Counted from the stretch's first letter, positions 11,031 through 63,402 are shown. The stretch: DNA of 64,000 bases from Candidatus Rokubacteria bacterium 13_1_40CM_69_27 (GCA_001917535.1 MNEF01000098.1:45241-109240), one strand, 5' to 3'. The notes: generated from the letters alone by a model not told the origin. Translations and numbers: made by a program.

Positions 11031-11774
11031 CTAGCGCCGTCGCTTGCGGCTGACGAACGCCTGGATCAGCTCCCGGGCGGCCGGACTCGTCCTGAGCGCC
11101 GCCCCGTAGGCCTCGGCCTCGGGGCCGCGCCCGCCGGCGCGTAGCATCGCCACGACCGCCTTCGTCGCCGCCAGCCCCACCCGCGGCGCGCGCGCGATGT
11201 CGGCCGCCCACGCCTCGGCGGTGGCCTCCAGTGTGGGCGCCGCCACCACGCGGTTGACGAGTCCCATCCGCAGCGCCTCGCTGGCGTGGATGGTGCGCCC
11301 GGTCAGCAGCAGGTCGCGGCCGTGGGCGCCGCCGGCGACGTCCAGTAGCCGGGCGATCCCGTAGGCGGGGTTGAAGCCGAGCGTCACCTCGGGTAGGCCG
11401 AAGCGGGCGCGGTCGGACGCGATCCTCAAGTCCTGGGCCACCGCCAGCATCAGCCCGCCCCCCAGGGCATAGCCGTCGATCGCCGCCAGCGTCACCTGCG
11501 GCAGGCGCGCGAAGCGCTCCATAAGGGCCGCCTGGCGCCGGGCCAGCGCTTCGGCCTCGTCGGCGCCGAGCGTGGCCATCTCGGTGATATCGTTGCCTGC
11601 GCAGAAGGCGCGGCCCCGCCCGGCAACGACGAGGACGTTGACGTCCTCCATCGCGGTGACGCGTTCGAGCGCCTCCTCCAGCGCGGCCGTGAGCGTGCGG
11701 TTCAGCGCGTTCAGCGCCTCGGGACGGTTCAACCTGAGCCAGGCTACGCCGCGCCCGGTCTCGAGGTCGAGCAT
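11031..11774 (-). CDS. Enoyl-CoA hydratase/isomerase family protein
   Basis: 247 aa reading MLDLETGRGVAWLRLNRPEALNAL...AFCAGNDI...IDGYALGGGLMLA, a crotonase fold. Confidence 0.8.
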   Translation of the reverse strand: MLDLETGRGVAWLRLNRPEALNALNRTLTAALEEALERVTAMEDVNVLVVAGRGRAFCAGNDITEMATLGADEAEALARRQAALMERFARLPQVTLAAIDGYALGGGLMLAVAQDLRIASDRARFGLPEVTLGFNPAYGIARLLDVAGGAHGRDLLLTGRTIHASEALRMGLVNRVVAAPTLEATAEAWAADIARAPRVGLAATKAVVAMLRAGGRGPEAEAYGAALRTSPAARELIQAFVSRKRRR

Positions 11775-12007
11775 CAGGCGCGGGGATGCGGCCGGAGCCA
11801 GGCGAGCGCGGCCAGCGCGACGCCCGCAGCGGCGGCGAAGGGCCAGAAGTTGGTGCGGAAGAACGGGATCGAGAACGCATCGACACCCAGCGGCAGGTGG
11901 GGCCCGTGCTCCTCCAGCGGGCTGACGGTGAGGATGATGACGGTGCGCTGCCGGTCGAGCGCGTCCAGCGCCCGCGTGGACATCTCTTCGAGTCGATGCA
12001 CGCTCAA
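11774..12007 (-). pseudogene. Creatininase-family (creatinine amidohydrolase) N-terminal fragment
   Basis: A 77-aa ORF with a TTG start containing ILTVSPLEEHGPHLPLGVDAF, which matches the creatininase motif (EQHGPHLPLGTD). It then diverges and terminates. Full-length family members are about 250 aa. Confidence 0.4.
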
Positions 12008-13518
12008 AAGGAGGACCCTCGGGTGGCCGTGAGGTAGTCGGTCTTGGCGCGGTCCAGCTCCGCGATGACGGCGCGGCGCTCGGCGATCAGCTCACGCGCG
12101 GCCTGGTCGCGCGTGAGCGCCAGCACGCCGAAGCGCAGCACGCGCCGGAGCCGGCCGAGCCCGCGGAAGTAGTGATAGGCCACCACGCCGGTGAGGGGCA
12201 GCGAGAGCGCGAAGAGGGCGGCCCAGCCCCGGCCGGCGAGGCGCGCCACCAGCCCGACCTCGAGCCCCCAGAAGAGGGGAAAGGCGACGATGCTGGCCAG
12301 CAGCCGCGTCGTCGCGTAGTCGGTCTCCTTGCGCGCGGTGGCCCGAGCGAGCCAGCGGGGCACGAAGTAGGGCAGCGCGTTGACGGCGGCGCCGTAGACG
12401 AACACGGGGAAGCCCGCGATGGCGCCCCCGGTGCGCCGGAGGCGCCGCCGGATCGGCGAGTGTCCCAGCCGCGCCTGCACCGCCTCGTCCTTCACCCGGT
12501 AGGCGCGGAGGAGGGCACGGTAGCCCTGTATCCGCTGCCAGATTCGCTCGACCCGCTTCGGCTCGCGCGCCTTGAAGTACTGCACCGCGTCCACGATCGT
12601 GCGCGACAGGCGGAAGAGATCGATCTGCCTGTCAGCGAGCCCGCGCTCCTCCCTCAGCTCGCGGATCAGCTCGCCCCGATAAAGCTCCTCCACGGCCCGG
12701 ACGACCTCGGCGGCCTCGATCCGGTCCACGTGCACCACTTGGGCCTCCATGGCCCACTGGATCGCCGTGGTGAGCGCCTCCACGCCCTTGGTGGCGTCGG
12801 CGTGGTAGGCCGCGACGTACGCGGCGATCGGGATCGGCTCGCCGAAGGAGACGAGCACCCGCCCCCTGAACGACTTGCGTGCTTCGAAGGACAGGCCGAC
12901 CGGAATGAGCCGCAGCTCGCCGGGATGGTCCACCTCGTAACCCAGGGCGATGCGGGCGGCGCCGGTCCTGATGCGCTGGACGCGGGCCTCGGCGTGGGTG
13001 GTGCCCTCGGGATAGATCGCGATGAGCCGGCCCTCGGCGAAGGCCCGATGACATGCCGCGAAGACGTCGGCGTTGCGGTCGGCTCGTCGGCTCGCCTCGG
13101 GCGCAGGGGGCGAGTTTGATTCGCTCGCCTCGCGCGCGGGGGCCCCAGCCCCCGGCCGCGCTGCGGCTCGCCCTGCGGCTCGCACTGCCATCTTGTCCGG
13201 GTCGTCCTGTCTCCGGTAGACGGGGATGGCGCCGCAGGCGGCGAGGAAGCACGCCAAGAGCGGATTGCGGAAGAGCGCGGCGGTGGCCAGATAGTGTGCC
13301 TTGCGGGTGAGGACGGCGCCGACCAGCAGGGAGTCGATGAGGTTGTTGGGGTGGTTGATGCAGAGCAGGACCGGCCCCCGCTCCGGCACCCGCTCGGAGT
13401 GCCGCGCGTCCACGCGCTTGAAGAAGAACCACAGCCAGAACCGCGCGATCAGCCGGACGGCCACGTAGAAGCGATCGCTCCCGGATGCGGCCGGAGCCTC
13501 GGCGACGGTCGTCGTCAT
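12004..13518 (-). CDS. Lysophospholipid/1-acyl-sn-glycerol-3-phosphate acyltransferase (PlsC family) with a C-terminal membrane extension and an internal low-complexity insertion
   Basis: The start is the ATG at 13518 (MTTTVAEAP). It has the HX4D motif NHPNNLID and the IYPEGTTH motif. A 33-aa insertion, AVRAAGRAAARPGAGAPAREASESNSPPAPEASRRADR, lies between motifs II and III and is encoded by the repeat family 2 copy. The 150-aa arginine-rich N-terminus of the tracked ORF is rejected. Confidence 0.75.
   Translation of the reverse strand: MTTTVAEAPAASGSDRFYVAVRLIARFWLWFFFKRVDARHSERVPERGPVLLCINHPNNLIDSLLVGAVLTRKAHYLATAALFRNPLLACFLAACGAIPVYRRQDDPDKMAVRAAGRAAARPGAGAPAREASESNSPPAPEASRRADRNADVFAACHRAFAEGRLIAIYPEGTTHAEARVQRIRTGAARIALGYEVDHPGELRLIPVGLSFEARKSFRGRVLVSFGEPIPIAAYVAAYHADATKGVEALTTAIQWAMEAQVVHVDRIEAAEVVRAVEELYRGELIRELREERGLADRQIDLFRLSRTIVDAVQYFKAREPKRVERIWQRIQGYRALLRAYRVKDEAVQARLGHSPIRRRLRRTGGAIAGFPVFVYGAAVNALPYFVPRWLARATARKETDYATTRLLASIVAFPLFWGLEVGLVARLAGRGWAALFALSLPLTGVVAYHYFRGLGRLRRVLRFGVLALTRDQAARELIAERRAVIAELDRAKTDYLTATRGSSF
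13078..13190. repeat. Direct-repeat family 2 (GCTCGCCTCGGGCGCAGGGG-type) inside the plsC-like coding sequence
   Basis: ggctcgcctcgggcgcaggggg at 13088-13109, gattcgctcgcctcgcgcgcggggg at 13116-13141 and a degenerate gcggctcgccctgcggctcgcactgcc unit after that. Near-identical units are at 59916-60025. Confidence 0.7.
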
Positions 13519-15154: not shown

Positions 15155-15157
15155 ATC

Positions 15158-15298: not shown

Positions 15299-15327
15299 CG
15301 TCGTCCCCCGCGCTGCGACCGATGGGG

Positions 15328-17247: not shown

Positions 17248-17249
17248 GC

Positions 17250-18380
17250 TCAGCGCCGTGCCAACGGCACGAAGGCGCGCCGGCCCGCCCCGGTGTACTC
17301 GCCGCGCGGCCGGATCAGACGATTGTCGTCGTGCTGCTCGATGATGTTGGCGGTCCAGCCGGCGATGCGGCCGGCCGCGATGACCGGCGTGAAGAGATCG
17401 ACGGGGATCCCCAGCGAGTAGAAGAGGGGAGCCGAATAGAAATCGACGTTAGGGATCAGTCCCTTGGCTGCGCTGATCCGCTCGTGGAGCGTCACCGATA
17501 TTTGAAACCACTTGAACTGCCCCGACTGTCGGCACGCCTCCTCGGCCATCCCCCTGAGGATGGCCGCGCGCGGGTCACCCGCCCGGTAGACGCGGTGGCC
17601 GAAGCCCATGAGCCGCCGCTTGGTCCGGAGCGCGTCTTCGGTGAAGCGCTCCACGCTGGCGACCTCGCCGATCTCCAGGAGCGTGTGCATGACCGCTTCG
17701 CCCGCCCCACCGTGCAGAGGGCCCTTGAGAGCGCCCACGCCGCCGGCCACCGCCGAGTGCATGTCCGACTGCGTCGAGGTGATGACGCGCGTGGTGAAGG
17801 TGGACGCGTTCATCTCGTGCTCGGCGTAGAGCGTGAGGCTCGCGTCGAAGGCCTTGGCCGCCGTGGCCGAGGGGCGGACGCCGGTCAGCATGTAGAGGAA
17901 GTTGGCGGCGTGCCCGAGATCGGCCGCGGGCGTGACGGGTTCCTGACCGCCGCGGACGCGATGGTGGGCGCAGATCGCAATCGCGAGCTGACTGGCCACA
18001 CGCGCCGCCTTGCGGCGGTTGGCGTCGTGCGAGTTGTCGGTGGTGTCGGGATCGTGCATGCCCAGGATGGCCACGGCCGCCTGCAGCGCGCGCATGGGGT
18101 CGGTGGACCGCGGCATCAGCCGGAAGGCCTCGATCAGCTCGCGGGGGATCGACCGCGCCGAGATCAGCTCGCTGACGAAGCGATCGAGCTGCGGCTTGCC
18201 CGGCAGCTCGCCGTGCCAGAGGAGGTAGGCGACTTCCTCGAAGGTCGCCTGGCGCGCGAGATCCTCGATGTCGTACCCGCCGTAGGCGAGCCGGCCGTTC
18301 TTGCCGTCGAGGTCGCACAGCCGCGTCTCGGCGGCGACGACTCCCTCGAGCCCGCGGATCAACGAACTCCCTTCGCTCAT
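17250..18380 (-). CDS. prpC: Citrate synthase family protein, probably 2-methylcitrate synthase
   Basis: 376 aa containing GFGHRVY and the other conserved citrate synthase motifs. It is co-oriented with the aconitase-family gene and prpF. Confidence 0.85.
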   Translation of the reverse strand: MSEGSSLIRGLEGVVAAETRLCDLDGKNGRLAYGGYDIEDLARQATFEEVAYLLWHGELPGKPQLDRFVSELISARSIPRELIEAFRLMPRSTDPMRALQAAVAILGMHDPDTTDNSHDANRRKAARVASQLAIAICAHHRVRGGQEPVTPAADLGHAANFLYMLTGVRPSATAAKAFDASLTLYAEHEMNASTFTTRVITSTQSDMHSAVAGGVGALKGPLHGGAGEAVMHTLLEIGEVASVERFTEDALRTKRRLMGFGHRVYRAGDPRAAILRGMAEEACRQSGQFKWFQISVTLHERISAAKGLIPNVDFYSAPLFYSLGIPVDLFTPVIAAGRIAGWTANIIEQHDDNRLIRPRGEYTGAGRRAFVPLARR

Positions 18381-18462
18381 GGCCGGCTCCTCGTGAGGGC
18401 TCTACGGTAGACTGGGGGTCCGCCCCGCGCAAGACCGGGCGGCCGCGTGTATCCTCGGCCCG

Positions 18463-19425
18463 GTGCGGCCGCCGACACTCGTCGCTCATGCCGACTGGGG
18501 ATGGAGCCCGCCCAAGCGCTGGCTGGCCCGCGCGTGTCTGGAGGCCGGCCGGTACGTCGCCCGGGCCCCCGAGCCGGTGGGGGCGCCGCCGACGCTGCTC
18601 GGCGACCTGGTCGCGGCGGCCCCGGGCGGCGGGCCCGTGCTGCTCGGCTTCGACTTTCCCATCGGGCTGCCCGCGGCCTACGCGGAGCGGGTCGGTATCA
18701 CGCGCTTCCTCGACGTTCTGCCCGGCTTCGGTGAGGCCGCCTGGCCCGAGTTCTATCGCGTCGCCGATCGCCCGGAGGACATCGCGCTGGCGCGGCCCTT
18801 CTATCCCGACCGCCCCGGCCTGTCCGGCGCGCGGCGGCGGGTCCACCTGGCCCAGGGACTGGGCGTCACCCTGAGCGCGCTCTGGCGCGCGTGCGATCGC
18901 AAGCAACCGTACCGTCGCGCCGCCGCCCCGATCTTCTGGACGCTCGGCGGCCAGCAGGTCGGCAAGGCCGCCATCAGCGGCTGGCGCGACGTCCTGGGGC
19001 CCGCGCTGCGGTCGGGCGACGTTGACGTGGCGATCTGGCCGTTCGCCGGCCGGCTCGGCGAGCTGTTGCGCCCTGGACGCGTCGTGATCGTCGAGTGCTA
19101 CCCCGCCGAGATCTACGCGCAGCTCGGTCTCGTCTTTCGACGACGCGGGGAGCGGAAGTGGGGCAAGCGCATCCAGGCGGACCGGCGCGCCAACGCCGCC
19201 CGGCTCTTCGCGTGGGCGCGCTCCGCGGGCGTGGCCCTCGCACCCTCGCTGCGAAAGGCGATCGCCAGCGGGTTCGGCGCCGGCGCCGACGGGGAGGACC
19301 GGTTCGACGCCGTCGTCGGGCTCTGCGGCATGCTGGAGACCGCGCTGGGGCGGCGGCCACCCGGGGAGCCGGACGACGAGGTCGTCCGAGCCGTCGAGGG
19401 GTGGATTCTCGGGTTACGCGTTTGA
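18463..19425 (+). CDS. Conserved hypothetical protein (DUF429-like)
   Basis: 320 aa with a GTG start, reading VAHADWGWSPPKRWLARA...LLGFDFPIGLPAAY. The family assignment is tentative. Confidence 0.5.
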   Translation: MRPPTLVAHADWGWSPPKRWLARACLEAGRYVARAPEPVGAPPTLLGDLVAAAPGGGPVLLGFDFPIGLPAAYAERVGITRFLDVLPGFGEAAWPEFYRVADRPEDIALARPFYPDRPGLSGARRRVHLAQGLGVTLSALWRACDRKQPYRRAAAPIFWTLGGQQVGKAAISGWRDVLGPALRSGDVDVAIWPFAGRLGELLRPGRVVIVECYPAEIYAQLGLVFRRRGERKWGKRIQADRRANAARLFAWARSAGVALAPSLRKAIASGFGAGADGEDRFDAVVGLCGMLETALGRRPPGEPDDEVVRAVEGWILGLRV

Positions 19426-20358
19426 CCTGCGCAGCACCTCTTCCACGAAGGCCCGCAGTGCCTCCCAATCGTACGGCCCCTGGCGGAAGGCGATGTTCAG
19501 GCGAGCGGCTCCCGCGTCGCGGTAGGCGGCGGCCAGCTCGATCGCCTGCTTGGGCGTGCCGCGCACGAAGCCGGTGCGGCCCTGCGCGTCCTTTCCAAAG
19601 TGCGCCTGGAAGAGCGCCTCGCCCCGGGCCGCGCCCTTGGCGTCGGCGCCCATGTAGAAGCCGACGTTGGCGGACTTCAAGATCGTCTTCGGGTCCCGTC
19701 CCTCCTTGTCGCACCACTGGTCGAGCACCTGGCTCTTCTTCTTCCACTGGTCGGGGCCGAGATAGGGCGCGTTCCAGCCGTCGGCGTAGCGGGCGGCGGC
19801 GCGCAACGTGCGCTTCTCGCCGCCGCCGCCGATCCAGATCGGCAGGCGCGGCTGGAGCGGCTTGGGGTTGTTGGGCGCGTTCTGGAGCTGGAAGTGCTTG
19901 CCGGTGAAGTTCGCGCGCTTGACCGCGGGATCGAAGAGCTGGCGGAGGGCCTGCGCGAACTCCTCCAGCATGTCCTCGCGCACGCCGATGGAGGGGAAGG
20001 GGATGCCGAAGGCGCGGGCCTCGAGCTCGTGCCAGCCGGCGCCGATGCCGCACTCCACGCGGCCATTCGAGAGGTAGTCGATGGAGGTCAGCGCGGAGGC
20101 CAACACCCCCGGGTTGCGGTACAGGTTGCAGTAGACCAGCGAGCCGATGCGCACGCGCTTCGTCTCCAGCGCGGCCGCCGTCATGATCGAGATGGACTCG
20201 AAGCAGTCGAGATCGCCGCCCTGGGGCGGGGACTCCTGGAAGTGATCCGACACCGAGAACCAGTCGAAGCCGCTTTCGTCGGCGAACTTCCAGAGCCGCC
20301 GCATCTCGGCGAGCGGCCCCCCCATGTGGCCGACGTGGATGCCGAAGGTCATGGCCAT
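19414..20358 (-). CDS. Luciferase-like (LLM class) flavin/F420-dependent oxidoreductase
   Basis: The start is the ATG at 20358 (MAMTFGIHVGHMGGPLAEM). It has a luciferase-like TIM barrel (WFSVSDHF, GIGAGWHELEARAFGIPFP). The 185-aa arginine-rich N-terminus of the tracked ORF is rejected. Confidence 0.75.
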   Translation of the reverse strand: MAMTFGIHVGHMGGPLAEMRRLWKFADESGFDWFSVSDHFQESPPQGGDLDCFESISIMTAAALETKRVRIGSLVYCNLYRNPGVLASALTSIDYLSNGRVECGIGAGWHELEARAFGIPFPSIGVREDMLEEFAQALRQLFDPAVKRANFTGKHFQLQNAPNNPKPLQPRLPIWIGGGGEKRTLRAAARYADGWNAPYLGPDQWKKKSQVLDQWCDKEGRDPKTILKSANVGFYMGADAKGAARGEALFQAHFGKDAQGRTGFVRGTPKQAIELAAAYRDAGAARLNIAFRQGPYDWEALRAFVEEVLRRSNA

Positions 20359-20369
20359 TGGTCGGCTCC

Positions 20370-26124: not shown

Positions 26125-27536
26125 AGGTGGTGGTCGTCGGGGGCGGCATCACCGGACTGGCCTGCGCCCACCGTGCGGTGGAGATCGCGCGGGAACGCGG
26201 CATCGAGCTCGAGCTCACGCTGCTGGAGGCGCGCGAGCGACTCGGGGGGACGATCGAGACCGAACGAACCGGCGGCTTCCTGATCGAGGCCGGCCCCGAT
26301 TCCTTCCTGTCCGAGAAGCCGTGGGCGCTCGCACTCTGCCGGCGCCTGGGGGTGGTGGATCGGCTCGTACCGACCGACGATCGCTTCAGGAAGACGTTCG
26401 TGTGGTTCCGGGGACGTCTGCACCCCTTGCCCGAGGGCTTTCAGCTCCTGGCGCCGGCCCGCTTCGGCCCCTTCATCACCTCCGGCCTCTTCTCGTGGCC
26501 AGGCAAGCTGCGCATGGCGCTCGATCTGCTGCTGCCGCGCGGGATCCCCGGCGAGGACGAGAGCCTGGGCTCGTTCGTGCGGCGGCGGCTCGGACGGGAA
26601 GCGCTCGAGCGCGTCGCCCAGCCGCTGGTGGCGGGCATTTACACGGCCGATCCGGACGAGCTGAGCCTCGCCGCCACCATGCCGCGCTTCCTCGAGCTCG
26701 AGCGTCGGGAGCGGAGCCTGATCCTCGCCCTCTGGCGCGCGCGCCGCCGCGCGCCGGCGACGGCCGAAGGGACGAGCGGAGCGCGCTGGAGCCTCTTCGT
26801 CACCTTCGCCGACGGGATGGGGGAACTGGCGGAGGCGCTGGCCGGACGCTTGCCGCCGGGAGCCGTGCACCTCAAGCACCGCGTGGACGGGATCGAGCGC
26901 GGCGGTCGCTGGCGGATCGATCTCGGTGCCGGCGGCGCGCTCGAAGCCGACCGCGTGGTCGTCGCCACCGAGGCCCACGGGGCCGCTCGCCTGCTCCGGT
27001 ACGTCGATCCGCCGCTGGCGACGATGCTCCAGATGATTCCGTACGCCTCGTCGGCCACCGTGTCGCTCGGCTATCGGCGCGCCGACATCCCCCATCCGCT
27101 CGATGGCTTCGGCTTCGTGGTGCCGCGCGTGGAGGGCCGCCAGCTGCTGGCGTGCACCTTCGCGAGCGTCAAGTACCCGGGGCGGGCCCCAGAGGGCGGA
27201 GCGCTCCTGCGCTGTTTCCTCGGCGGCGCCCTGAACGCCGCGGTGCTGGAGCGGGACGACGGCGAGCTCATCCAGCGGGCCAGAGAGGAGCTGAGCGCGG
27301 CGCTCGGCGTCACCGCCGAGCCGGTGCTCGCCCGGGTGGCGCGCCATCCCTTCGCGATGCCGCAGTACGGTGTGGGCCACCGCAAGAGCGTCGAGGCGAT
27401 CGAGCGCCGGCTCGAGACGGCGCCCGGCCTCGCGCTCGCCGGGGCCGCCTACGGGGGCGTGGGCATCGCCGACTGCGTGAGGTCGGGCGAGAGCGCCGCC
27501 GAGCGTGTCCTCCTCGGCCGAGCCCACGAGGGCTGA
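26121..27536 (+). CDS. hemY: Protoporphyrinogen oxidase (FAD-dependent HemY/PPOX type)
   Basis: 471 aa with a GTG start and a dinucleotide-binding motif VVVVGGGITGLACA. It has full-length PPOX-family similarity. Confidence 0.85.
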   Translation: MKVVVVGGGITGLACAHRAVEIARERGIELELTLLEARERLGGTIETERTGGFLIEAGPDSFLSEKPWALALCRRLGVVDRLVPTDDRFRKTFVWFRGRLHPLPEGFQLLAPARFGPFITSGLFSWPGKLRMALDLLLPRGIPGEDESLGSFVRRRLGREALERVAQPLVAGIYTADPDELSLAATMPRFLELERRERSLILALWRARRRAPATAEGTSGARWSLFVTFADGMGELAEALAGRLPPGAVHLKHRVDGIERGGRWRIDLGAGGALEADRVVVATEAHGAARLLRYVDPPLATMLQMIPYASSATVSLGYRRADIPHPLDGFGFVVPRVEGRQLLACTFASVKYPGRAPEGGALLRCFLGGALNAAVLERDDGELIQRAREELSAALGVTAEPVLARVARHPFAMPQYGVGHRKSVEAIERRLETAPGLALAGAAYGGVGIADCVRSGESAAERVLLGRAHEG

Positions 27537-28231
27537 CGGCGACGGCGAGGACGGTGGACCGCGTTACGCGCGGTGCCGGAGCCCGCGCCGTAGGCGTCGA
27601 CGACCTCGCCCAGCTCGGCCCGCTCGTCGGGCCCCAGCGCCCGCTCGAGAACGCTCGCCGCGTGCCGGAGGACGGTGGCGTCCCGGGCTCGGGTGGCGCG
27701 CACCGCCAGGGCCTCCATCAGAAGCGCGCCGTAGGCGTCGAGCGCCTCGCCCGTGAGCCTGGGGCCGGCGGCGGCGACGAGCCGGCCGAGCCGCGGATAG
27801 TGCGGGGGGCTGTGGACCAGCACGGCGTCCTCGTGCGCCGCGTGGTAGGCCGCGAGGTCGCGGGTGCGGGGCGGGGTCGCCCAGCCGGCCTTCTTCTTCC
27901 ACGGGCAGACGCGGCAGGCGACCGACGAGCACGGCGGCGTAGAGCCCGCGGCCCGCCCCCGGGGGCGGCCGTCCGCGTGGTACACGAGAACACGGAAGGC
28001 CCCGCAGGAGGGCGACGCGCGCTTGAGGACGTAGCCGTCGAGGCCGAGTCGTCGGGCGGGGCACGCCGAGGCCGACCTCGACTCCGGGCAGACGGGCACC
28101 CACTCGACGAAGGGGCCGAGCGTCGCGGTGAGGAACGGATCGCGTTTGTCGCCGCCGTCGTAGCGGACACGCTCGCCCAGCAGGCACGCCGAGATTCCGA
28201 GGCGGGGCTTTTCGGACTCGATTTTCGGCAT
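27449..28231 (-). CDS. DUF523 + DUF1722 fusion protein (YbgA-like)
   Basis: The start is the ATG at 28231, giving MPKIESEKPRLGISACLLGERVRYDGGDKRD...VPVCPE (DUF523 N-terminus), then LKRASPSCG, then a DUF1722-like C-terminus (LAAYHAAHEDAVLVHSPPHYPRLGRLVAAA). The central part of DUF523 is shortened and the conserved GLxxPRP segment appears in another frame. The 3' end overlaps hemY by 88 nt. Confidence 0.5.
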   Translation of the reverse strand: MPKIESEKPRLGISACLLGERVRYDGGDKRDPFLTATLGPFVEWVPVCPESRSASACPARRLGLDGYVLKRASPSCGAFRVLVYHADGRPRGRAAGSTPPCSSVACRVCPWKKKAGWATPPRTRDLAAYHAAHEDAVLVHSPPHYPRLGRLVAAAGPRLTGEALDAYGALLMEALAVRATRARDATVLRHAASVLERALGPDERAELGEVVDAYGAGSGTARNAVHRPRRRRQPSWARPRRTRSAALSPDLTQSAMPTPP

Positions 28232-31938: not shown

Positions 31939-32217
31939 TCACGGGCAGCTCCCGGCCCTGGTCAGACCCAGGAGCAGGAAGGCGGCTCCGCCGGTGAGCC
32001 CGCCGGCGATGTCGGTCACCCAGTGAGCATTCAGAACGACGCGACTTACCGCGACCCCGGCCACCGCCGCCAGGCACAGGCCGGTGCCGACGCAGCGCCA
32101 GGCGCGCCGCGCGTCGCTCGTCCACAGCAGGTGGGTCAGCGCGCCAAAGAGAAGCGAGACGAGGGCCGGCCCGGCGAGCGCCTGTCGCGCGCCGCTCATT
32201 CGGGTGTCGGGCGTCAT
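31939..32217 (-). pseudogene. PAP2 phosphatase C-terminal fragment
   Basis: A 92-aa ORF carrying only the third PAP2 motif (SRVVLNAHWVTDIAGG) and two TM segments. Motifs 1 and 2 are absent. Confidence 0.4.
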
Positions 32218-35443: not shown

Positions 35444-35567
35444 GGTAGGCCGGTTGGGAGGGACGGTGATGAACGCCGACAAAGGAAGGGCTGAGTTCGG
35501 ACAGGCCAAAGGTTGCGTGATACTCCTCGCGTAGAGTGGAATGAAACAGAGGAGTTCAACCGGGCCA

Positions 35568-36296
35568 ATGGCTTCCGTTCGCGATTACTATAAGATTTTG
35601 GGTCTGGGCCGGCACGCCGACCAAGCAGCCATCAAGCGGGCCTACCGGCGACTCGCGCTGAAGCACCATCCCGACGTCGCCGGGCGCCATTCGCCGGCTC
35701 GTTTCCTGGAGATCCAGGAGGCCTACGCTGTTCTCTCCGATCCCGAAAAGCGCCGCCAGTACGACGCCGTCCGCCGGGAGCGGGACCTGGCGTCGCCGGG
35801 TGATCGCCCGGCACGGGCAGGCGCCAAGCGAGCTGGCCGTCGCCCGGGGGCGGACTTTTTCCGGCTCGTCGTGGAAGGGCTTGGGCTCAGCATCGGTGTC
35901 AGGCTGGGGAGGGCCGGGGGGGACCGGCGACGGCGCGGCCAAAAGCCGAGCTCGAAGGACCCGGGGCCACGGTCATGGAAAGATCTCACGCGATCAGTTC
36001 CGTCGCGCCCGTCACAATCACCCCTCGGGAGGCCACCGCCCGACCCGGCGGAGACAGGGAAAGCACGATCGGTGCCCCGGGGGCGACGGCGCGGCGGGAG
36101 TTGGGGAACTTGGCCATGGATCGTGCTGCGGCAGTGCGGGGCCGACGACTTGACGCCACCATCATCATCGCCAATGCTGCGGACCCCGTGTTCGTCGCCG
36201 ACCTCCAGGGCCGGATCTTGGCAAGGTCAGAACGCTGGAGCGGGAGAGCGACGGACAGATCCCGACCGTGGCGCTGACCGCCTACGCACGCAGTGA
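35568..36296 (+). CDS. J-domain (DnaJ-like) protein with a low-complexity C-terminal region
   Basis: It starts MASVRDYYKILGLGRHADQAAIKRAYRRLALKHHPD...EAYAVLSDPEKRRQYD, a canonical J domain with HPD. The following 170 aa are Pro/Arg/Ser-rich with no recognised domain and overlap the receiver remnant in another frame. The ATG at 35568 has a GAGGAG-type site upstream. Confidence 0.5.
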   Translation: MASVRDYYKILGLGRHADQAAIKRAYRRLALKHHPDVAGRHSPARFLEIQEAYAVLSDPEKRRQYDAVRRERDLASPGDRPARAGAKRAGRRPGADFFRLVVEGLGLSIGVRLGRAGGDRRRRGQKPSSKDPGPRSWKDLTRSVPSRPSQSPLGRPPPDPAETGKARSVPRGRRRGGSWGTWPWIVLRQCGADDLTPPSSSPMLRTPCSSPTSRAGSWQGQNAGAGERRTDPDRGADRLRTQ

Positions 36297-36417
36297 AGAT
36301 CGTGCGCGAGCGCTCTCCGCAGGATTCCAGATGCACGTGGCCAAGCCGGTCGAGCCGGTCGAGTTCGCGGCCCTCATTGCGGGCCTGACGGCCAGGCCCC
36401 GTCAGCGACGCGCCTGA
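36154..36417 (+). pseudogene. Response-regulator receiver (REC) domain remnant with a possible frameshift
   Basis: This frame encodes PGPDLGKVRTLERESDGQIPTVALTAYARSEDRARALSAGFQMHVAKPVEPVEFAALIAGL, which matches the REC beta3-to-alpha5 half, with no start codon. The phospho-acceptor segment DPVFVADLQG sits in a neighbouring frame, separated at a GGG run at about 36209. The N-terminal acidic pocket is not found. Confidence 0.35.
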
Positions 36418-41455: not shown

Positions 41456-42244
41456 ATGGTGGTTCGGCGCTGCGTCTGGCATCGCAAGTATCGCGGGTAC
41501 CCCCTCGTGTACGGCGTCGCCTCGTGGCGCGACCCGAGCATCGCCTTCAGCGATGGCATCTGCCGCCGGTGCACCGTCCGCCTGCGGGAGGACCTGCGGT
41601 TTCCCCCTCACGTGGTGGACTCGGCGCCGGAGGCGCCGGCGTGGGAGCCGCTGGTGCCGGGGACCGCGGTCGCGCTCGCCGTCATCGCGACGCTGCTGAT
41701 CGTCACGCAGCCCCTCGACGCGCCCCCGCCGGCGCGGATCGTGACGCCCGAGCCCCCGCGGGCCGTTGTCGACGCGGCCCTCGATCGCGCGGTCCGGATC
41801 GAGTCGCGGGGGGTGAGCCGGCCGGGCCCGCACCGAACCGTCACGACGAGGTCCAAGGCAGACGAGTCGGCGCTGCCGAGAGCGGCGGTGGCGATGCGTC
41901 CAGGGCGGCCTCTCCTCGCATCGGCAACGGGGGCCCGCCCGGCAGCCGCGAGCCCGCCCGGAGTGATCGCGTTCAACGACCGCGCGGCCGCGGGCGCCGG
42001 GTTGGGGATGCAGGCCCCCGAGGTCATCGAAGGGGGCCTCGACGCCCCCTGCGAGCCTCTCCCAGAGCCGATTGCGCCCGCGAAGCCGGCACTCGAACCG
42101 CGGTTACTCCGACAGCCCCTAGCCGACGCGGCGCCGCCTCAGGCGTGCGAGGGGCCGGCGGTGTCCTCGGCGCGCACCGGCGTCCGGCCACGCAGGAAGT
42201 CGAAGTCGCAGCCCTCGTCGGCTTGCAGCACGTGGTCGAGGTAG
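41456..42244 (+). CDS. Hypothetical Cys-rich membrane protein with a Pro-rich tail
   Basis: It starts MVVRRCVWHRKYRGYPLVYGVASWRDPSIAFSDGICRRCTVRL, a C-x2-H...C-x2-C zinc-ribbon-like module. This is followed by one TM helix (AVALAVIATLLIV) and then a long Pro/Ala-rich region whose 3' end overlaps the convergent dehydratase gene by about 100 nt. Confidence 0.35.
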   Translation: MVVRRCVWHRKYRGYPLVYGVASWRDPSIAFSDGICRRCTVRLREDLRFPPHVVDSAPEAPAWEPLVPGTAVALAVIATLLIVTQPLDAPPPARIVTPEPPRAVVDAALDRAVRIESRGVSRPGPHRTVTTRSKADESALPRAAVAMRPGRPLLASATGARPAAASPPGVIAFNDRAAAGAGLGMQAPEVIEGGLDAPCEPLPEPIAPAKPALEPRLLRQPLADAAPPQACEGPAVSSARTGVRPRRKSKSQPSSACSTWSR

Positions 42245-49675: not shown

Positions 49676-50701
49676 ATGCCGATGCCGAGGATCGCCGCCG
49701 TGGCGACGGCGACGCCCCCCTACCGGTTCACGCAGTCCGACCTGCTGGCGCTGTCCGGCTACACCGACGCGCAGCGCCGCGGCTTCTTCGAGCGCAGCGA
49801 GATCGAGAGCCGCTTTCTCTACATCGACCCCCGGCGCTTCCGTCCCGACGAGAGCGTGGATGAGCTGCAGGACCGCTTTCGGCGCGGCGCGCTGGAGCTC
49901 TCGGAGGCGGCGGCGCGGGGGGCGCTGGCGCGGGCCGGCTGGACGGCGGGCGACGTGGACTTCGTGGCCACCACCACCTGCACCGGGCGCCTCACCCCCA
50001 GCCTGGACGCTCACCTGATCGGGCGCCTCGGCTGTCGGGCCGACGTCCAGCGCGCGCACATCGGTGACACCGGCTGCGCCTCCGCGATGGTGGCGCTGCA
50101 GCAGGCGTGGAATCATCTCCACGCCTTCCCGGAGCACCGCGCGCTCGTGGTGGCGGTGGAGATCTGCTCGGCCGCGTACTTCCTCGATCAGCGCCTGGAG
50201 TCGGCGGTCGCCCACGCCATTTTCGCCGACGGCGCCGGAGCCCTGGCGCTGTCGGCTACCGGCCAGGGCCCTGCCGTCGTGGCCCACCGCACGCTCTTCA
50301 GACCCGAGCATCTCGACGCCATGGGCTTCGAGTATCCCGGCGGCCGCCCCCGGGTGGTCCTCTCCAAGGACGTGCGTCGCATCGGCGCCGGCATGCTCGA
50401 CGAGATGACGAAGGTGTTGATGGACGCGCAGGGGCTCAAGCGCGAGGATATCCGCCACTGGATCCTGCACTCGGCGGGGCGGCGCGTGCTCGATCGCGCG
50501 CGCGTGCTGCTCGCGCTCACCGAGGAGCAGATGGCGCACGCGCGGGCGGTGCTGAGAAAGTACGGCAACATGTCATCGGCGACGATCCTCTTCGTGCTCG
50601 AGGAGATGCTACGCGCCGAGTCGACGGTGCCGGGCGACTGGGGGCTCATGATCGGCCTCGGGCCCGGGTTCGCGGCCGAGGGCGCCCTGCTCAGATGGTA
50701 G
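49676..50701 (+). CDS. Type III polyketide synthase (chalcone/stilbene synthase family)
   Basis: It has the Cys-His-Asn triad context (TTTCTGRLTPSLDAHL, GCASAMVALQQA, ILHSAGRRVL, GPGFAAEGALLRW). The ATG at 49676 has a GGAGGG site 4 nt upstream, with alternatives at 49664 and 49682. Confidence 0.85.
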   Translation: MPMPRIAAVATATPPYRFTQSDLLALSGYTDAQRRGFFERSEIESRFLYIDPRRFRPDESVDELQDRFRRGALELSEAAARGALARAGWTAGDVDFVATTTCTGRLTPSLDAHLIGRLGCRADVQRAHIGDTGCASAMVALQQAWNHLHAFPEHRALVVAVEICSAAYFLDQRLESAVAHAIFADGAGALALSATGQGPAVVAHRTLFRPEHLDAMGFEYPGGRPRVVLSKDVRRIGAGMLDEMTKVLMDAQGLKREDIRHWILHSAGRRVLDRARVLLALTEEQMAHARAVLRKYGNMSSATILFVLEEMLRAESTVPGDWGLMIGLGPGFAAEGALLRW

Positions 50702-50824
50702 TGCGAGCCGCAGGACGGCCGGGGGCGGGGGCCCCCGCGTCCGAGGCGAGCCGATGAATCGAGTGGTGCGAGCCGCAGGACGGCCGGGGGCGGGGGCCCC
50801 CGCGTCCGAGGCGAGCGGTGTCCC

Positions 50825-58421: not shown

Positions 58422-59872
58422 GCCCGATCCCGGCGCCGCCGGTCGTGCTCGGCCCGCTCCTGCCCTCGCTGATCGTGGTCGGCACCGCCATCGTGGTGCT
58501 CCTGCTCGATCTCCTGCCGCCCCGCGCCAGCAAGGCGCACCTGGGCACCGTCGCCCTGGCCGGGCTGGTGGGGGCGCTCCTGGCCACCTTGAGGACGTGG
58601 GGCAGCGGCGGCCGCGCCTTCCACGACATGATCGTGCTGGACGACTACGCCCTCTTCTTCCACATCGTCATCTGCTACGCGGCGGCGCTGATCGTGCTCC
58701 TCTCGATGGATTACCTGCGTCGGGCCGGCGCCGAGTCGGGCGAGGGCTACGGCCTCATCCTCTTTTCCACCGCCGGCATGATGGTGCTCGCCTCCGCCAA
58801 TGACCTGATCGTCGTGTTCCTGGCCATCGAGCTGATGTCGCTTTCGCTCTACGTGCTGGCGGGGCTGTTCAAGCGACGGCGGGAGGCGGGCGAGGCGTCG
58901 ATGAAGTACTTCCTGCTCGGCGTGTTCGCCTCCGCCTTCCTCCTCTACGGCATCGCCCTGGTCTACGGCGCCACCGGCACGACCAACTTCGACCGCATCG
59001 TGGTGGCCGTGGGCGCGGGGCCGCGCGATCGGCTCTTCCTCATCGGGCTCGGGATGCTCATGGTGGGCTTCGGCTTCAAGATCTCGTCCGTGCCCTTCCA
59101 CATGTGGGCCCCGGACGTCTACCAGGGAGCGCCCACCAGCGTCACCGCGCTCATCGCCACCGGATCGAAGGCGGCGGTCTTCGCGGCACTCATCCGCCTG
59201 CTGGTGGCCGGCCTGCGCACGATCCAGCCGGACTCCACCGCGCTGCTGTGGGCGCTGGCCGCGCTGACCATGACCGTCGGCAACGTCGTCGCCATCGCCC
59301 AGTCGAACCTCAAACGGATGCTGGCGTACTCCTCCATCGCCCACGTGGGGTACATGCTGGTCGGGCTGGTGGCCGGCGGCGCGCCGGGCGCCGGCGCCGT
59401 TCTCTTCTACCTGCTGGCGTACACCTTCACCACGGTGGGCACGTTCGGGGTGATCGCGCTCTGCGAGCGAGCGGGGCAGGAGGCGGTCGAGGTGCGCGAC
59501 TACGCGGGGCTCGGGCGACGCCATCCGCTGCTGGCGCTCACGCTCGGCCTCTTCCTCCTGTCGCTGATCGGGATCCCGCCCCTGGCCGGCTTCGTCGGCA
59601 AGTTCTACCTCTTCGGCTCCGCGGTGCGCGCCGGCTACGTCTGGCTCGCCGTCATCGCCGTGCTCAACTCCGCCGTCGCCGCTTACTACTATCTGCGGGT
59701 GATCGTCTACATGTACATGCAGGAGCCGGAGGCGGCCTCGGCGTCGCTGGCGCCGTCTTTCGCCGGGGGCCTGGCGCTCGCGATCGCGCTCATCGGCATC
59801 GTGCTCCTCGGGGTGATGCCGGCGCCGTTCGCGGACCTCGCGCAGGCCGCCGTCGCCCCCCTGATCCGCTAG
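58418..59872 (+). CDS. nuoN: NADH-quinone oxidoreductase subunit N
   Basis: The ATG at 58418 overlaps the nuoM stop. It reads KISSVPFHMWAPDVYQGAPTSVTALIATGSK. Confidence 0.9.
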   Translation: MSPIPAPPVVLGPLLPSLIVVGTAIVVLLLDLLPPRASKAHLGTVALAGLVGALLATLRTWGSGGRAFHDMIVLDDYALFFHIVICYAAALIVLLSMDYLRRAGAESGEGYGLILFSTAGMMVLASANDLIVVFLAIELMSLSLYVLAGLFKRRREAGEASMKYFLLGVFASAFLLYGIALVYGATGTTNFDRIVVAVGAGPRDRLFLIGLGMLMVGFGFKISSVPFHMWAPDVYQGAPTSVTALIATGSKAAVFAALIRLLVAGLRTIQPDSTALLWALAALTMTVGNVVAIAQSNLKRMLAYSSIAHVGYMLVGLVAGGAPGAGAVLFYLLAYTFTTVGTFGVIALCERAGQEAVEVRDYAGLGRRHPLLALTLGLFLLSLIGIPPLAGFVGKFYLFGSAVRAGYVWLAVIAVLNSAVAAYYYLRVIVYMYMQEPEAASASLAPSFAGGLALAIALIGIVLLGVMPAPFADLAQAAVAPLIR

Positions 59873-59915
59873 TGCCGGCCCAAGTAACTTCGCCATACTT
59901 CGTTCTCGGACTTAC

Positions 59916-60025
59916 GCAGGCTCGCCTCGCGTACCGAGCACGCTGCGGCTTCGCACGAATGGTCTCAGGCTCGCCTCGGACGGGCGGGATTCTCCGGGTT
60001 CGCTCGCCTCGGGCGCAGGGGCCCA
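59916..60025. repeat. Direct-repeat family 2 (three units) at the truncation point of a CoA-transferase remnant
   Basis: caggctcgcctcgcg at 59916, caggctcgcctcggacgggcggg at 59966 and ttcgctcgcctcgggcgcaggggcc at 59998. The last unit is almost identical to 13088-13109. Confidence 0.7.
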
Positions 60026-60444
60026 AGGCGCTGGGACTGGACCAGCTGCTCACCGACCCGCGGTACACGCCGTGGTCGAATCTCCTCGCCCGGCGCGGCG
60101 AGCTGATCGAGACGCTGGAGGCGCGCTTCCGCACCCGCACGACAGAGGAGTGGCTGAAGGTCCTCGTCGAGAGCGGCGTGCCGGCGGGCCGGGTCAACTC
60201 CGGCCGGGAGGTCTTCGAGCACCCGCAGCTCAAGCTCAACGGCGTCGTGATGGACACACGGCATCCCCGGGCCGGCCGCCTGCGCATGATGGGCTTCCCG
60301 CTGCGGCTCACCCGCACGCCGGCGCGGCTGCGCCGTCACGCGCCGGCGCTCGGTGCCGACACCCGCGCGGTGCTGCGGGACCTCGGCTATCGTCCGGCGG
60401 AGATCCGACGGCTGGTCGGCGAGCGCGTGGTGCGCGGCCGGTGA
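60007..60444 (+). pseudogene. C-terminal 145 aa fragment of a family III CoA-transferase
   Basis: It reads LGLDQLLTDPRYTPWSNLLARRGELIETLEARFRTRTTEEWLKVLVESGVPAGRVNSGREVFEHPQL...HPRAGRLRMMGFPLRLTRTPA...LGADTRAVLRDLGY, which matches the CaiB/BaiF C-terminal domain. The about 250-aa N-terminal domain is missing, and upstream in the frame lies repeat sequence and the end of nuoN. Confidence 0.5.
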
Positions 60445-61232
60445 CGACGCCCCGCCTCCGGCTACCGCACCGGGGCTGGCTCTTCGATCTCGACGGCACG
60501 GTGTATCGCGGCGAGGCGCTGATCCCCGGCGCGCGCGAGACGATCCTGGCTTTGCGCGCCGCCGGCCGCCGGGTGGTCTTCCTCTCGAACAAGCCGCTCC
60601 AGACCCGCGAGGATTACGCGCTCAAGCTCACCGGCCTGGGGATCCCCACGAGGGCCGACGAGGTGATCAGCTCGTCGCTGGTGCTGGTCCGCCACCTGGC
60701 GGTCCTCGATCCGGGGGCCCCCGTCTTCGTCATCGGCGAGCCGCCGCTGATCGCCGAGCTCGCCGCCACCGGGTTCGAGGTCCGGCGCGACCACCAGGTG
60801 CGGTGGGTCGTGATCGCCTTCGACCGCACCTTCGATTACGCGAAGCTCAACACGGCTCTCCAGGCCGTGCGGGGCGGGGCCGGGCTGATCGCCACGAATC
60901 CTGATCGCACGTGCCCCACCGAGCACGGCGAGATTCCCGACTGCGCTGGCATGATCGCCGCCGTCGAGGCGGTGACGGGCCGGGCGGTGGAGATCATCGT
61001 CGGCAAGCCGTCGCCGATCATCCTGGAGGTCGCGCTGGCGACATTGGGGGTCGAGGCGGCCGACTGCGTCGTGGTGGGCGACCGCCTCGAGACCGACATC
61101 GTCATGGGCAAGCGGCGGGGGCTGGGGACGGTGCTCGTGCTGAGCGGCATCACGCGTCCGGACGATCCCCGCATCGCCGAGATCAACCCGGACGCCGTGA
61201 TAGGATCGATTCGAGAGCTGATCCAACCATGA
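60441..61232 (+). CDS. HAD superfamily hydrolase, subfamily IIA (NagD/PGP-like phosphatase)
   Basis: GTG at 60441 (GTGA overlap). It reads WLFDLDGTVYRG...VVFLSNKP...GKPSP...VGDRLETDI. Confidence 0.75.
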   Translation: MTTPRLRLPHRGWLFDLDGTVYRGEALIPGARETILALRAAGRRVVFLSNKPLQTREDYALKLTGLGIPTRADEVISSSLVLVRHLAVLDPGAPVFVIGEPPLIAELAATGFEVRRDHQVRWVVIAFDRTFDYAKLNTALQAVRGGAGLIATNPDRTCPTEHGEIPDCAGMIAAVEAVTGRAVEIIVGKPSPIILEVALATLGVEAADCVVVGDRLETDIVMGKRRGLGTVLVLSGITRPDDPRIAEINPDAVIGSIRELIQP

Positions 61233-62848
61233 CGCGAGCGGCGCTGACCGACGGTGACTACGACGTCGTCATCATCGGCGGCGGCATGGCGGGCGCCGGC
61301 GCCGCCCGCGACCTCGCGCTGCGGGGTGCGGCGGTGGCGCTGTTGGACAAGGGCGACTTCGCCTCCGGCACCACCTCCCGCTCGTCGAAGCTGATCCACG
61401 GCGGGCTGCGCTACCTCGAGCTCTTCGACGTCGCCCTGGTCCGCGAGTCGCTGCGCGAGCGGGAGACCCTCCGGCGGCTGGCGCCGCACCTCGTCCGACC
61501 GCTGCCGTTCCTGGTGCCCGTCTACCGCGATTCGTCGCGCAGCCTCATCAAGGTCCGGATCGGGCTCACGCTCTACGACTGGCTCACGCCGGGGCGGGAC
61601 CGCGAGCGCTACCGCGTGCTGCGCCCCGTCGACGCGCTGAGCCTGGAGCCGGGGATCCGCGCGGAGGATCTCAAGGGGGCGGGCTACTACTTCGACGACC
61701 TGCTGGTGTTCCCCGAGCGGCTCTGCCTGGAGAACGTGCTCTCGGCCTGCCGGCACGGCGCCCGCGCCTTCAACTACGCCGACGTCGAAGAGGTCGTTCG
61801 GGACCCGCGCGGGCGCATCCGGGGCGTGCGGGCCCGCGACCTCCTCACCGGCCGGGTGGTGACGTTCGGCGCCCGCGTCGTCGTCAACGCCACGGGGCCG
61901 TGGGTCGATCTGATCCGCGAGCGAGCGCGCATCGCCGACCGGGGGCGGCAGATCGTGCGGCGGACCAAGGGCGTCCACTGCCTGCTGCCCCGACTCACCG
62001 ACCGCGCCGTCTATCACGGCACCAGCGACGACCGGATGATCTTCGTGATCCCCTGGCGCGACTTCTCCCTGGTGGGCACCACCGACACCGACTTCGACGG
62101 CGACCTCGATCGCCTCTTCGCCACGCGCCAGGAGGTCACCTATCTCCTCCAGGAGGTCCGCAAGGCGGTGCCCGATCGGCGCGTGGTTCCGGAGGAGGTG
62201 GCGTACACGTACGCCGGCGTGCGACCGCTCTCGTTCGAGGAGGGCAAGCGCGCGTCGGACGTGTCGCGAGCGCACCGGGTGGTGGTCGAGGCGGGCGGCG
62301 ACTTCCTCTCGGTCACGGGGACGAAGCTGACCTGCTACCGCAGCCTGGCCGCCGCGCTGGGGGATCGCGTGATGCAGAGGCTGGGGCGCCGCGCGCCCAG
62401 CCGCACCGACCGCCTGACGCTGGACGGCGCCGACGAGCCGCCGGGGCGCGTCGAGGCGCGCGCCTGGCTCGACGTCTCGCCGGAGGTGGCGGCCTCCGGG
62501 CTCAGCCGCGAGACGCTGGAGACGCTCGTCGCCACCTACGGCCGCACCTACCGCCGGGTGATCGAGCTGGCGGGCAAGGTGCCGGGCGGCGCCGAGCGGC
62601 TCTGCCCGCAGAATCCGGAGATCGTCGCCCAGCTCCACCACGCGGTGCAGGAGGAGTTGGCGGTGTCGCTCCAGGACGCGCTGCTGCGCCGCACCGGCAT
62701 CGGCACCAGCGGGTGCCAGGGGCTCGACTGTGCCGAAGCCATCGGCCGACGGATGGCGCAGCTCGCCGGCTGGACCCCGCGCCGGCTCCAGGCGGAGCTG
62801 GACGCCTGGGAGGCGCACGTGGCGCGCTCCCAGCGCTTCAAGGCGTGA
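61229..62848 (+). CDS. glpD: FAD-dependent glycerol-3-phosphate dehydrogenase
   Basis: The ATG at 61229 overlaps the HAD stop (ATGA). It reads YDVVIIGGGMAGAGAARDLALRG...SSKLIHGGLRYLE. The tracked N-terminal extension is rejected. Confidence 0.85.
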   Translation: MTRAALTDGDYDVVIIGGGMAGAGAARDLALRGAAVALLDKGDFASGTTSRSSKLIHGGLRYLELFDVALVRESLRERETLRRLAPHLVRPLPFLVPVYRDSSRSLIKVRIGLTLYDWLTPGRDRERYRVLRPVDALSLEPGIRAEDLKGAGYYFDDLLVFPERLCLENVLSACRHGARAFNYADVEEVVRDPRGRIRGVRARDLLTGRVVTFGARVVVNATGPWVDLIRERARIADRGRQIVRRTKGVHCLLPRLTDRAVYHGTSDDRMIFVIPWRDFSLVGTTDTDFDGDLDRLFATRQEVTYLLQEVRKAVPDRRVVPEEVAYTYAGVRPLSFEEGKRASDVSRAHRVVVEAGGDFLSVTGTKLTCYRSLAAALGDRVMQRLGRRAPSRTDRLTLDGADEPPGRVEARAWLDVSPEVAASGLSRETLETLVATYGRTYRRVIELAGKVPGGAERLCPQNPEIVAQLHHAVQEELAVSLQDALLRRTGIGTSGCQGLDCAEAIGRRMAQLAGWTPRRLQAELDAWEAHVARSQRFKA

Positions 62849-63402
62849 CGTCCCGCCGCGTCGTCGTCGGCTCCGTGGCGCTGCTCGCCACCGCATTCGC
62901 CGCGCCGCTGGCCGCGGTGTCAGACGAAGAGGTGAAGACGATCTCCACGCGGCCGGGTGTGACGCAGTCGTTTCTCCTCCTGCCTCCGGCCGCGCCCCCG
63001 CTGGCCAGCGTCATCCTCTTCACCGCCACGTTCCTGTTCCGGCAGTTCTACCTGACGGTCCCCGACGAGCCGGCCGAGGCGGCGCAGCTGGACGGCGTCG
63101 GACCCCTGCGGTTCCTCTGGTCGTTCCTCCTCCCGCTGTCATGGACGAACGTCGCCGCCCTCTTCGTGGTTCTCTTCATCTACGGCTGGAACCAGTACCT
63201 CTGGCCCCTCATGATCACCAACACCGAGGCCATGCGCGTCGTCGTCATCGGCCTGCAAGACCTCATTCCGCGGACGGGGACGCACGTCCCCGGGTGGAAC
63301 ATCATGATGGCCGCCGCCATGGTGGCGCTCCTGCCGCCGGTGGCGGTGATCCTCCTCATGCAGCGCTGGTTCGTGAAGGGCCTCGTCGGGAGCGAGAAGT
63401 AG
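62845..63402 (+). pseudogene. ugpE: C-terminal remnant of sn-glycerol-3-phosphate ABC permease UgpE fused to an unrelated signal-peptide-like leader
   Basis: Only about 130 aa match the UgpE/MalG C-terminal half (FRQFYLTVPDEPAEAAQLDGVGPLRFLWSFLLPLSW...WNQYLWPLMITNTEAMRVVVIGL...MAAAMVALLPPVAVILLMQRWFVKGL, an EAA loop with the last 2-3 TM helices). The N-terminal 60 aa (VTSRRVVVGSVALLATAFAAPLAAVSDEEVKTIS) is not UgpE-like. Confidence 0.45.

Follow-up and report, generated by a model that had tools for sequence, protein, structure and literature searches.

Five gene remnants in a 64-kb stretch of a soil Rokubacteria genome are probably relics of independent deletions in accessory genes

Mira, Ochman and Moran are said to have traced bacterial pseudogenes and gene remnants to a deletional bias in 2001. 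Deletional gene decay and the removal of pseudogenes are an established process in bacteria (Kuo and Ochman 2010, PMC2916853), and the Rokubacteria are reported to have large genomes with 8-17% non-coding DNA and high cell-to-cell heterogeneity (PMC5712423). Here we analyze a stretch of 64,000 nucleotides (nt) from Candidatus Rokubacteria bacterium 13_1_40CM_69_27, called the window below, which harbors partial genes for a creatininase, a PAP2 phosphatase, a PAS/receiver protein, a CoA-transferase, and the permease UgpE. The window has a G+C content of ~70% and its proteins match metagenome-assembled genomes of Candidatus Rokubacteria / Methylomirabilota; its host is a soil species of the Rokubacteria (Methylomirabilota). 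A gene call based on codon usage gives ~60 genes, which mostly abut or overlap by 1-4 nt. Comparison with related loci indicates, with a probability that we put at about 85%, that the five fragments are relics of independent deletions of dispensable, patchily distributed genes in otherwise conserved, tightly packed operons.

A preliminary description of the window had reported five domain-sized gene remnants, and a Pfam search of each fragment bears this out, with partial matches in all five (11774-12007, 31939-32217, 36154-36417, 60007-60444, and 62845-63402). The remaining genes that were checked show full Pfam coverage, with a DUF523/DUF1722 gene at 27449-28231 as a possible exception. Neighboring genes abut each of the five fragments and leave no room for the missing gene parts; since there is no such space, a frameshift with the remainder of each gene in another frame was dropped as an explanation. 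The start and stop overlaps with neighbors that had been described are likewise present (TTGA, TGATG, ATGA, GTGA, GTGA, and TAGATG), except for the receiver frame at 36154-36417, which has no start codon before 36268. The view of the remnants as single stubs holds as far as the partial matches go, but the creatininase open reading frame (ORF) contains both ends of its gene, and the "UgpE" ORF begins with a piece of another gene.

Two causes had been proposed, gene decay and recombination-driven rearrangement, and synteny comparison separates them. For four of the five fragments, relatives carry an intact, full-length gene at the same syntenic position (creatininase, hydrolase-ugpBAE, CoA-transferase, and PAP2; none was found for PAS/receiver), as expected for decay. 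Gene order around every fragment is otherwise collinear with that of relatives, which argues for deletional decay and not for rearrangement, and a repeat copy adjoins only one junction. The deletions, of ~0.35 to ~3.5 kb, lie inside accessory genes or operons and left the following pieces:

11774..12007, minus strand: creatininase relic ORF, 77 amino acids (aa) from a TTG start, with residues 1-44 and 274-306, both ends of a 306-aa creatininase
31939..32217, minus strand: PAP2 relic ORF, 92 aa, with motif 3 (SRvvlnaHwvtD) and the last transmembrane helices
36106..36222, plus strand: PAS-domain N-terminal stub (…IIIANAADPVFVADLQGRIL), in another frame than the receiver stub
36220..36417, plus strand: receiver-domain C-terminal stub with a partial Response_reg match, within the frame 36154-36417
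59877..60026, plus strand: repeat-derived filler made of partial copies of the GCTCGCCTCGG…GGGGCCC family, replacing the 5' ~790 nt of a CoA-transferase gene
59959..60444, plus strand: CoA-transferase III relic ORF, 161 aa, of which ~23 aa are repeat-derived and the rest is the C-terminal domain
62845..63021, plus strand: N-terminus of an alpha/beta-hydrolase (by tblastn), 59 codons with signal peptide and first strand
63022..63402, plus strand: C-terminus of ugpE, 126 codons with the EAA loop, joined to the hydrolase stub in frame

The Pfam match of the creatininase relic covers positions 1-39 of the 238 positions of the Creatininase profile (PF02633). In BLASTP, the relic aligns to a full-length protein, P0001, in two collinear pieces, residues 1-48 at 90% and residues 274-306 at 85% identity. 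P0001 is located in the sister genome GCA_036001065.1 (locus L007; other related loci are given by L numbers as well), which is syntenic with the window over 20 kb, with proteins that are 91-96% identical and dS values of 0.11-0.22. Here, an intact 306-aa creatininase gene lies between the same acyltransferase and enoyl-CoA hydratase (ECH) genes, and the acyltransferase-creatininase pair is also found in L174, L175, and L176. DNA alignment to L007 revealed a 693-nt (231-codon) in-frame internal deletion with its junction at ~11873-11876, ending at an imperfect 12-nt direct repeat (TCGaTGC-GTTC / TCGcTGCtGTTC) of which 4 nt are perfect. The relic overlaps the acyltransferase gene by TTGA and the ECH gene by TGATG. 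All of its best 120 homologs are 300-327 aa long. With 231 of 306 residues deleted, the metal-dependent amidohydrolase fold of ~240 residues is incomplete and the ORF does not qualify as a functional creatininase; what remains are profile positions 1-39 and a hydrophobic C-terminal tail. The dN/dS of the N-terminal stub is 0.37, a value taken over 48 codons only.

The ORF at 62845-63402 is an in-frame fusion, hydrolase(1-59)::UgpE(C-terminal 126 aa), left by a ~3.5-kb deletion, because its residues 1-59 match a hydrolase N-terminus and residues 60-185 match UgpE. Residues 1-59 are 53-55% identical to the first gene after glpD in L021 and L024 (tblastn), with further matches in L025, L039, L040, and L041. 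In L021, L024, L025, and L040 this hydrolase gene directly follows glpD, encodes a signal peptide, and has a GTG overlapping the glpD stop as in the window; the intact gene in relatives matches Pfam Hydrolase_4. The ugpE piece covers positions 54-182 of 184 of the BPD_transp_1 profile and shares 79-91% identity with the C-terminal part of the full-length UgpE proteins of relatives. Most of 80 related loci begin to match residues 60-185 at 2.7-2.9 kb past glpD, after an interval that encodes UgpB, UgpA, and the 5' half of UgpE; it measures ~3.7 kb in L018, L021, L023, L024, L025, L033, and L040. The deletion thus took ugpB and ugpA. The fusion ORF overlaps the glpD stop (GTGA), and the ugpE stop directly precedes the ATG of the GDPD gene (TAGATG). 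A functional UgpE-type permease is not encoded, as 126 C-terminal aa are all that is left and ugpA and ugpB are missing from the locus in all strains. Two related loci, L082 and L032, independently hold just the last 24-31 ugpE codons before the GDPD gene, and nothing of ugpE is left at the site in L012, L015, L081, L060, L072, and L074.

Other disruptions were observed in the surroundings of glp clusters. Downstream of the cluster, other Rokubacteria keep relics of an ABC importer. In L010 (17089-17661), the N-terminus of a solute-binding protein is joined in frame to the C-terminus of a permease across an entire ABC operon, a relic of the same build as in the window but in another species. 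The permease of L048 (8597-9231) has lost an internal segment and with it the reading frame, and L056 retains a C-terminal stub of 72 aa (17630-17845). In one strain of the same species, at L169 8000-9591 (GCA_036820235.1, just past the window end), ORFs of 93 and 74 aa stand where another strain, L168, has a 500-aa FGGY glycerol kinase, and this site may be a further strain-specific disruption in the glycerol-phosphate cluster.

For the CoA-transferase relic, the CoA_transf_3 match covers profile positions 255-366 of 366, and the stop codon overlaps the start of a HAD hydrolase gene (GTGA). Relatives match the window at the DNA level up to the nuoN stop (59872-59876) and again from 60027 on; partial repeat copies make up the 150 nt between. 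Since the ATG at 59959 falls within this filler, the 161-aa ORF opens with ~23 residues of repeat origin. A full-length gene of ~400 aa (Pfam 1-366 of 366) is found between nuoN and HAD in L022, L038, L043, L077, L084, and L085, and one stands beside HAD in L008. L012 has a CoA-transferase with an in-frame deletion of its own, of ~35 aa, in which the GDFGADVVKVE region is lost, and in ~45 relatives the site has no gene and spans 3-170 nt only. Profile positions 1-254, and with them the region of CoA binding and of the catalytic Asp, are gone from the relic, which rules it out as a functional CoA-transferase III.

The element at the CoA-transferase junction is short, GC-rich, imperfectly palindromic, and present in multiple copies, and thus belongs with repeats of the repetitive extragenic palindrome / bacterial interspersed mosaic element (REP/BIME) type. 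Repeat alignments placed the copies of the second repeat family as follows:

13116-13174: copy
50698-50751: copy
50763-50816: copy
59913-60030: partial copies

The copy at 13116-13174 lies in frame inside the acyltransferase ORF 12004-13518 (minus strand). This acyltransferase is 504 aa long in the window, compared with 510 aa for the sister and 471 aa for L174-L176, and strain L002 differs in its length exactly at the repeat, with a split gene call. At 5319-5448, three copies of a GC-rich hairpin repeat (TCGGAGGGGGCC…GGCCCCCTCCGA) lie inside ORF 4486-6345 (minus strand), a 619-aa LivM-LivG-type permease-ATPase fusion in which the repeats are translated as a linker (…SEGASAAPSD…QRGPHGPLR…QRGPHGPLR…). 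These hairpin repeats may represent the former intergenic region of two now-fused genes.

The PAP2 match of the fourth relic covers profile positions 62-120 of 130, and its ATG overlaps the stop of a BadF-type kinase gene (ATGA). A protein annotated for Candidatus Rokubacteria bacterium 13_1_40CM_69_27 has the identical 92-aa sequence. Full-length PAP2 genes of ~205 aa with motifs 1-3 are present at the same site in L105, L150, and L151; the site measures just 75-130 nt in ~25 other relatives, and 329 nt are kept in the window. Residues 23-85 of the relic are 52-56% identical to the C-terminus of these three genes, whereas neighboring genes reach 66-82%; the greater divergence of the relic is only suggestive of relaxed selection. 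Residues 1-22 do not align to the original N-terminus with a local score above that of shuffled sequences (p ~0.1). Of the PAP2 motifs, KxxxxxxRP and PSGH are gone and SRxxxxxHxxxD alone remains, so that a functional PAP2 is not encoded. Coding scores of the PAP2 ORF and its neighboring ORFs are very low.

The PAS and receiver stubs lie in a gap of 1,071 nt that separates the convergent SSF-transporter and GH3 genes and has a low coding score. The Response_reg match corresponds to profile positions 62-110 of 111 and scores 23.7 bits, under the 30.2-bit cut-off, and homologs with 55-73% identity support this sub-threshold match. The PAS stub shares ~60% identity with the N-terminal region of P0123, a protein of 95 aa that comes from a different metagenome and has Pfam matches to PAS_8 (positions 6-39 of 65) and PAS (6-37 of 113); the window stub itself gave no PAS match by Pfam. 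P0123 is a homologous, in-frame PAS-N::receiver-C remnant with a junction different from that of the window, and is the one short analog found for this relic. No short homolog aligning end to end was found in other species for the creatininase, PAP2, CoA-transferase, or UgpE fragments. The (beta-alpha)5 domain of the receiver is incomplete, its score is below the cut-off, and its frame lacks a start codon before 36268, all of which speak against a functional receiver. Public gene callers call no gene there, and with no such start codon we consider the receiver stub a non-coding relic.

Insertions and deletions make the gap between the SSF and GH3 genes hypervariable. Among relatives, it contains 0-7 kb of unrelated, differing cargo, read from the sequences as an ECF sigma factor, a substrate-binding protein, a cupin, a GAF-PAS sensor, and, in L125, a protein similar to the window gene at 18463-19425. 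At the start of the variable insert lies one further feature:

35541..35978, plus strand: small J-domain ORF, Pfam DnaJ 1-63 of 63, low coding score

This ORF carries a nonsense polymorphism at 35976-35978, with TGG in the window (251-aa ORF) and TAG in L171 and L089 (called as 136 aa).

Could the fragments be artefacts of metagenome assembly, that is, chimeric joins or collapsed repeats? The source organisms are uncultured, REP-like repeats are present, and one strain assembly differs in length at the repeat inside the acyltransferase gene. We compared the junctions by exact-protein look-ups and at the DNA level with assemblies from ENA, NCBI, JGI, and Logan (assemblies, not raw reads), which carry the relics as follows:

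Creatininase junction: ERZ27285634, GCA_036820235.1, GCA_001920475.1, ERZ27285545, and SRR2546425
PAP2 junction: GCA_001918005.1, GCA_036820235.1, and JGI 3300002562
PAS/receiver region: JGI25382J43887 and GCA_001918005.1
CoA-transferase and UgpE junctions: ERZ27285634, ERZ27285562, and GCA_036820235.1

All five junctions recur at 99-100% identity and without gaps in 2-6 same-species assemblies from different projects, samples, and assemblers, and only one of them is near a repeat. Such recurrence in independent assemblies shows that they are not chimeras, and we give next to no credit to an assembly artefact. The relics are fixed across strains, with 0-2 substitutions each and no indels. Recombination between the two repeat families, which would make the fragments the breakpoints of inversions or translocations, corresponds to the rearrangement named in the preliminary description. 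Repeats are frequent in the window, and repeat-family sequence stands exactly at the 5' breakpoint of the CoA-transferase relic. However, order and orientation flanking every fragment match those of relatives, the missing gene parts are not found elsewhere in the window, and a repeat copy is absent from four of the five junctions, among them that of the creatininase relic with its 4-12-nt microhomology. We therefore regard rearrangement as very unlikely.

The small ORFs might also be functional short proteins, either neofunctionalized mini-proteins or stand-alone domains, that are selected for their product. Four of them retain a start codon together with the translational coupling that they inherited, they are predicted by public gene callers, two exact in-frame fusions keep a signal peptide or transmembrane helix, all sampled strains have them fixed, and P0123 provides a similar in-frame PAS::receiver mini-ORF in another organism. 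Yet the best creatininase homologs are all of full length and the PAP2 relic recovers its own cluster only, the CoA-transferase and UgpE sites of relatives are full, empty, or occupied by stubs of other lengths, catalytic motifs and partner subunits are missing, and the very low coding scores around PAP2 do not point to a selected protein. The stop/start overlaps date from the intact operons, as the intact creatininase gene of the sister has the same tight junctions, and being inherited they are no evidence of a new function. Selection for a protein product thus appears unlikely. The suggestion that the fragments are still expressed is a separate matter: judged by their start codons and inherited overlaps, the four relic ORFs may plausibly be translated into small proteins, and expression of the receiver piece is not plausible.

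Deletional decay, which we favor over these alternatives, would proceed as follows. Illegitimate recombination at microhomology may have produced the deletions, and REP-like repeats may have taken part at the CoA-transferase site; one junction lies at microhomology (creatininase) and one is repeat-associated (CoA-transferase), with synteny otherwise intact. Only deletions confined to the dispensable gene would survive. Stubs would persist at the gene ends because neighboring genes overlap or abut them, so that a neighbor's ribosome-binding site, start, or stop lies inside the stub. The relics themselves would then be by-products and not working enzymes or transporters.

In-frame alleles may in addition be favored, as they would let translation end, as before, at the stop to which the start of the next gene is coupled. 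Two in-frame deletions, creatininase and hydrolase::UgpE, keep the original start and stop, and the PAS and receiver stubs are out of frame with each other. The in-frame creatininase, hydrolase::UgpE, and L010 relics are consistent with selection for coupling, and so is the ugpE 3' end kept before the GDPD gene in three independent deletions (window, L082, and L032). That stubs are retained, preferably as in-frame mini-ORFs, for the ribosome-binding site and the stop-start junction driving the downstream gene nevertheless seems doubtful to us; if true, the deletion alleles that reach fixation would be those that pass a selection against polar effects. Six deletions with both gene ends kept could be scored. 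The frame is preserved in four of them (creatininase and hydrolase::UgpE of the window, L010, and L012) and lost in the other two (PAS/receiver of the window and the permease of L048). P0123, a further in-frame case, was left uncounted, as it was found via a protein database, which favors in-frame ORFs.

Several observations weigh against our interpretation or parts of it. Four in six against an expected third gives a binomial p of only ~0.1, which leaves selection for in-frame, non-polar alleles a hypothesis. A full-length parent of the PAS/receiver remnant was not found in the variable spot of relatives, and a search of protein collections with the PAP2 relic returned its own 92-aa cluster only, with no closer full-length homolog. 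As PAP2 and CoA-transferase are both absent from most relatives, the clade may have gained them on its own and be losing them at present, which would still be decay.

Is the window richer in relics than related loci? As a control, we assembled 42 conserved families, each with six or more members and a length of 150 aa or more, from the window and 160 related loci (2.07 Mb altogether) and scored how far each locus covers each family; PAP2, creatininase, and PAS/receiver were left out because they have too few full-length relatives. The window has 2 relics vs 23 full-length matches, and the 160 other loci have 8 relic events vs 1,206 full-length matches (Fisher one-sided p = 0.016, which is optimistic because the window was chosen for looking fragment-rich). 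The excess of relics in the window is thus suggestive only. Counting all five, relics make up ~8% of the genes (about 5 in some 62); in free-living bacteria, ~1-5% of the genes are typically annotated as pseudogenes.

Screening the ORFs of relatives against the window brought up two more candidate relics, both of which were rejected. The ORF at 41456-42244 (plus strand) is an intact, conserved small Cys-rich protein (RRCxWHR…GYP…C..C) with a transmembrane helix and a Pro-rich tail ending in QAP; it is found in many relatives and uncalled by public gene callers. The window ORF lacks the stop after QAP and continues across a hairpin repeat into the 3' end of ilvD, to which it runs antisense. The other candidate, at 18463-19425, is a gene replacement and not a relic. 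At this flexible site (18523-19431), the window has a 320-aa gene, read as DUF429-like by eye without Pfam, vs an 80-aa tautomerase gene in the 91-96%-identical sister, to which DNA homology breaks at 18522 and resumes at 19432. The DUF523 (2-thiouracil desulfurase)/DUF1722 gene at 27449-28231 (minus strand) has a low coding score and patchy Pfam coverage, overlaps its convergent neighbor by 88 nt, and is absent from relatives or 43-45% identical there; it may be a sixth decaying gene.

The window thus catches an uncultured soil lineage with large genomes while it is losing genes. The relic ORFs are deposited as hypothetical, creatininase, PAP2, CoA-transferase, or ABC-permease proteins and should not be counted as functional genes when the metabolism of Rokubacteria is reconstructed. 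The species, for instance, has lost the Ugp glycerol-3-phosphate importer and keeps the glpD and GDPD genes. The sites also form a small data set on whether operon architecture biases which deletions survive.

Compared with described systems, the five relics are further examples of the established deletional decay of accessory genes. Like bacterial deletion pseudogenes, they are non-functional leftovers with intact orthologs in close relatives. They are lineage-specific, arose recently (sister dS ~0.15), and concern accessory genes that are weakly connected. They differ in a local density that is high for a free-living bacterium and in that no insertion sequences are involved; moreover, deletion pseudogenes are more often frameshifted or truncated, whereas several window relics are clean in-frame fusions keeping both operon junctions. 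As in the islets and accessory-gene hotspots that lie among the core genes of pangenomes, cargo at the relic sites is present, absent, or replaced depending on the relative (nuoN-HAD, glpD-GDPD, the gap beside the kinase gene, and SSF/GH3), but islets are usually either filled or empty and the window sites are half-emptied; the sites that were examined showed neither integrase nor mobile-element genes. The repeats resemble REP/BIME elements as short GC-rich palindromes in many copies, mostly after genes, with the difference that some copies lie within ORFs (the LivM-LivG linker, an acyltransferase loop, and the N-terminus of a relic ORF). A literature search turned up no paper on pseudogenes of Rokubacteria or on natural selection favoring relics that stay in frame, and the relics that preserve coupling in frame offer a testable angle of modest interest. 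The creatininase and hydrolase::UgpE relics are built like the non-polar deletions by which bacterial genetics spares the expression of translationally coupled genes downstream, with start, stop, and both overlaps kept; in the window, however, such deletions arose naturally, and selection for expression of the downstream gene may have had a part in their survival.

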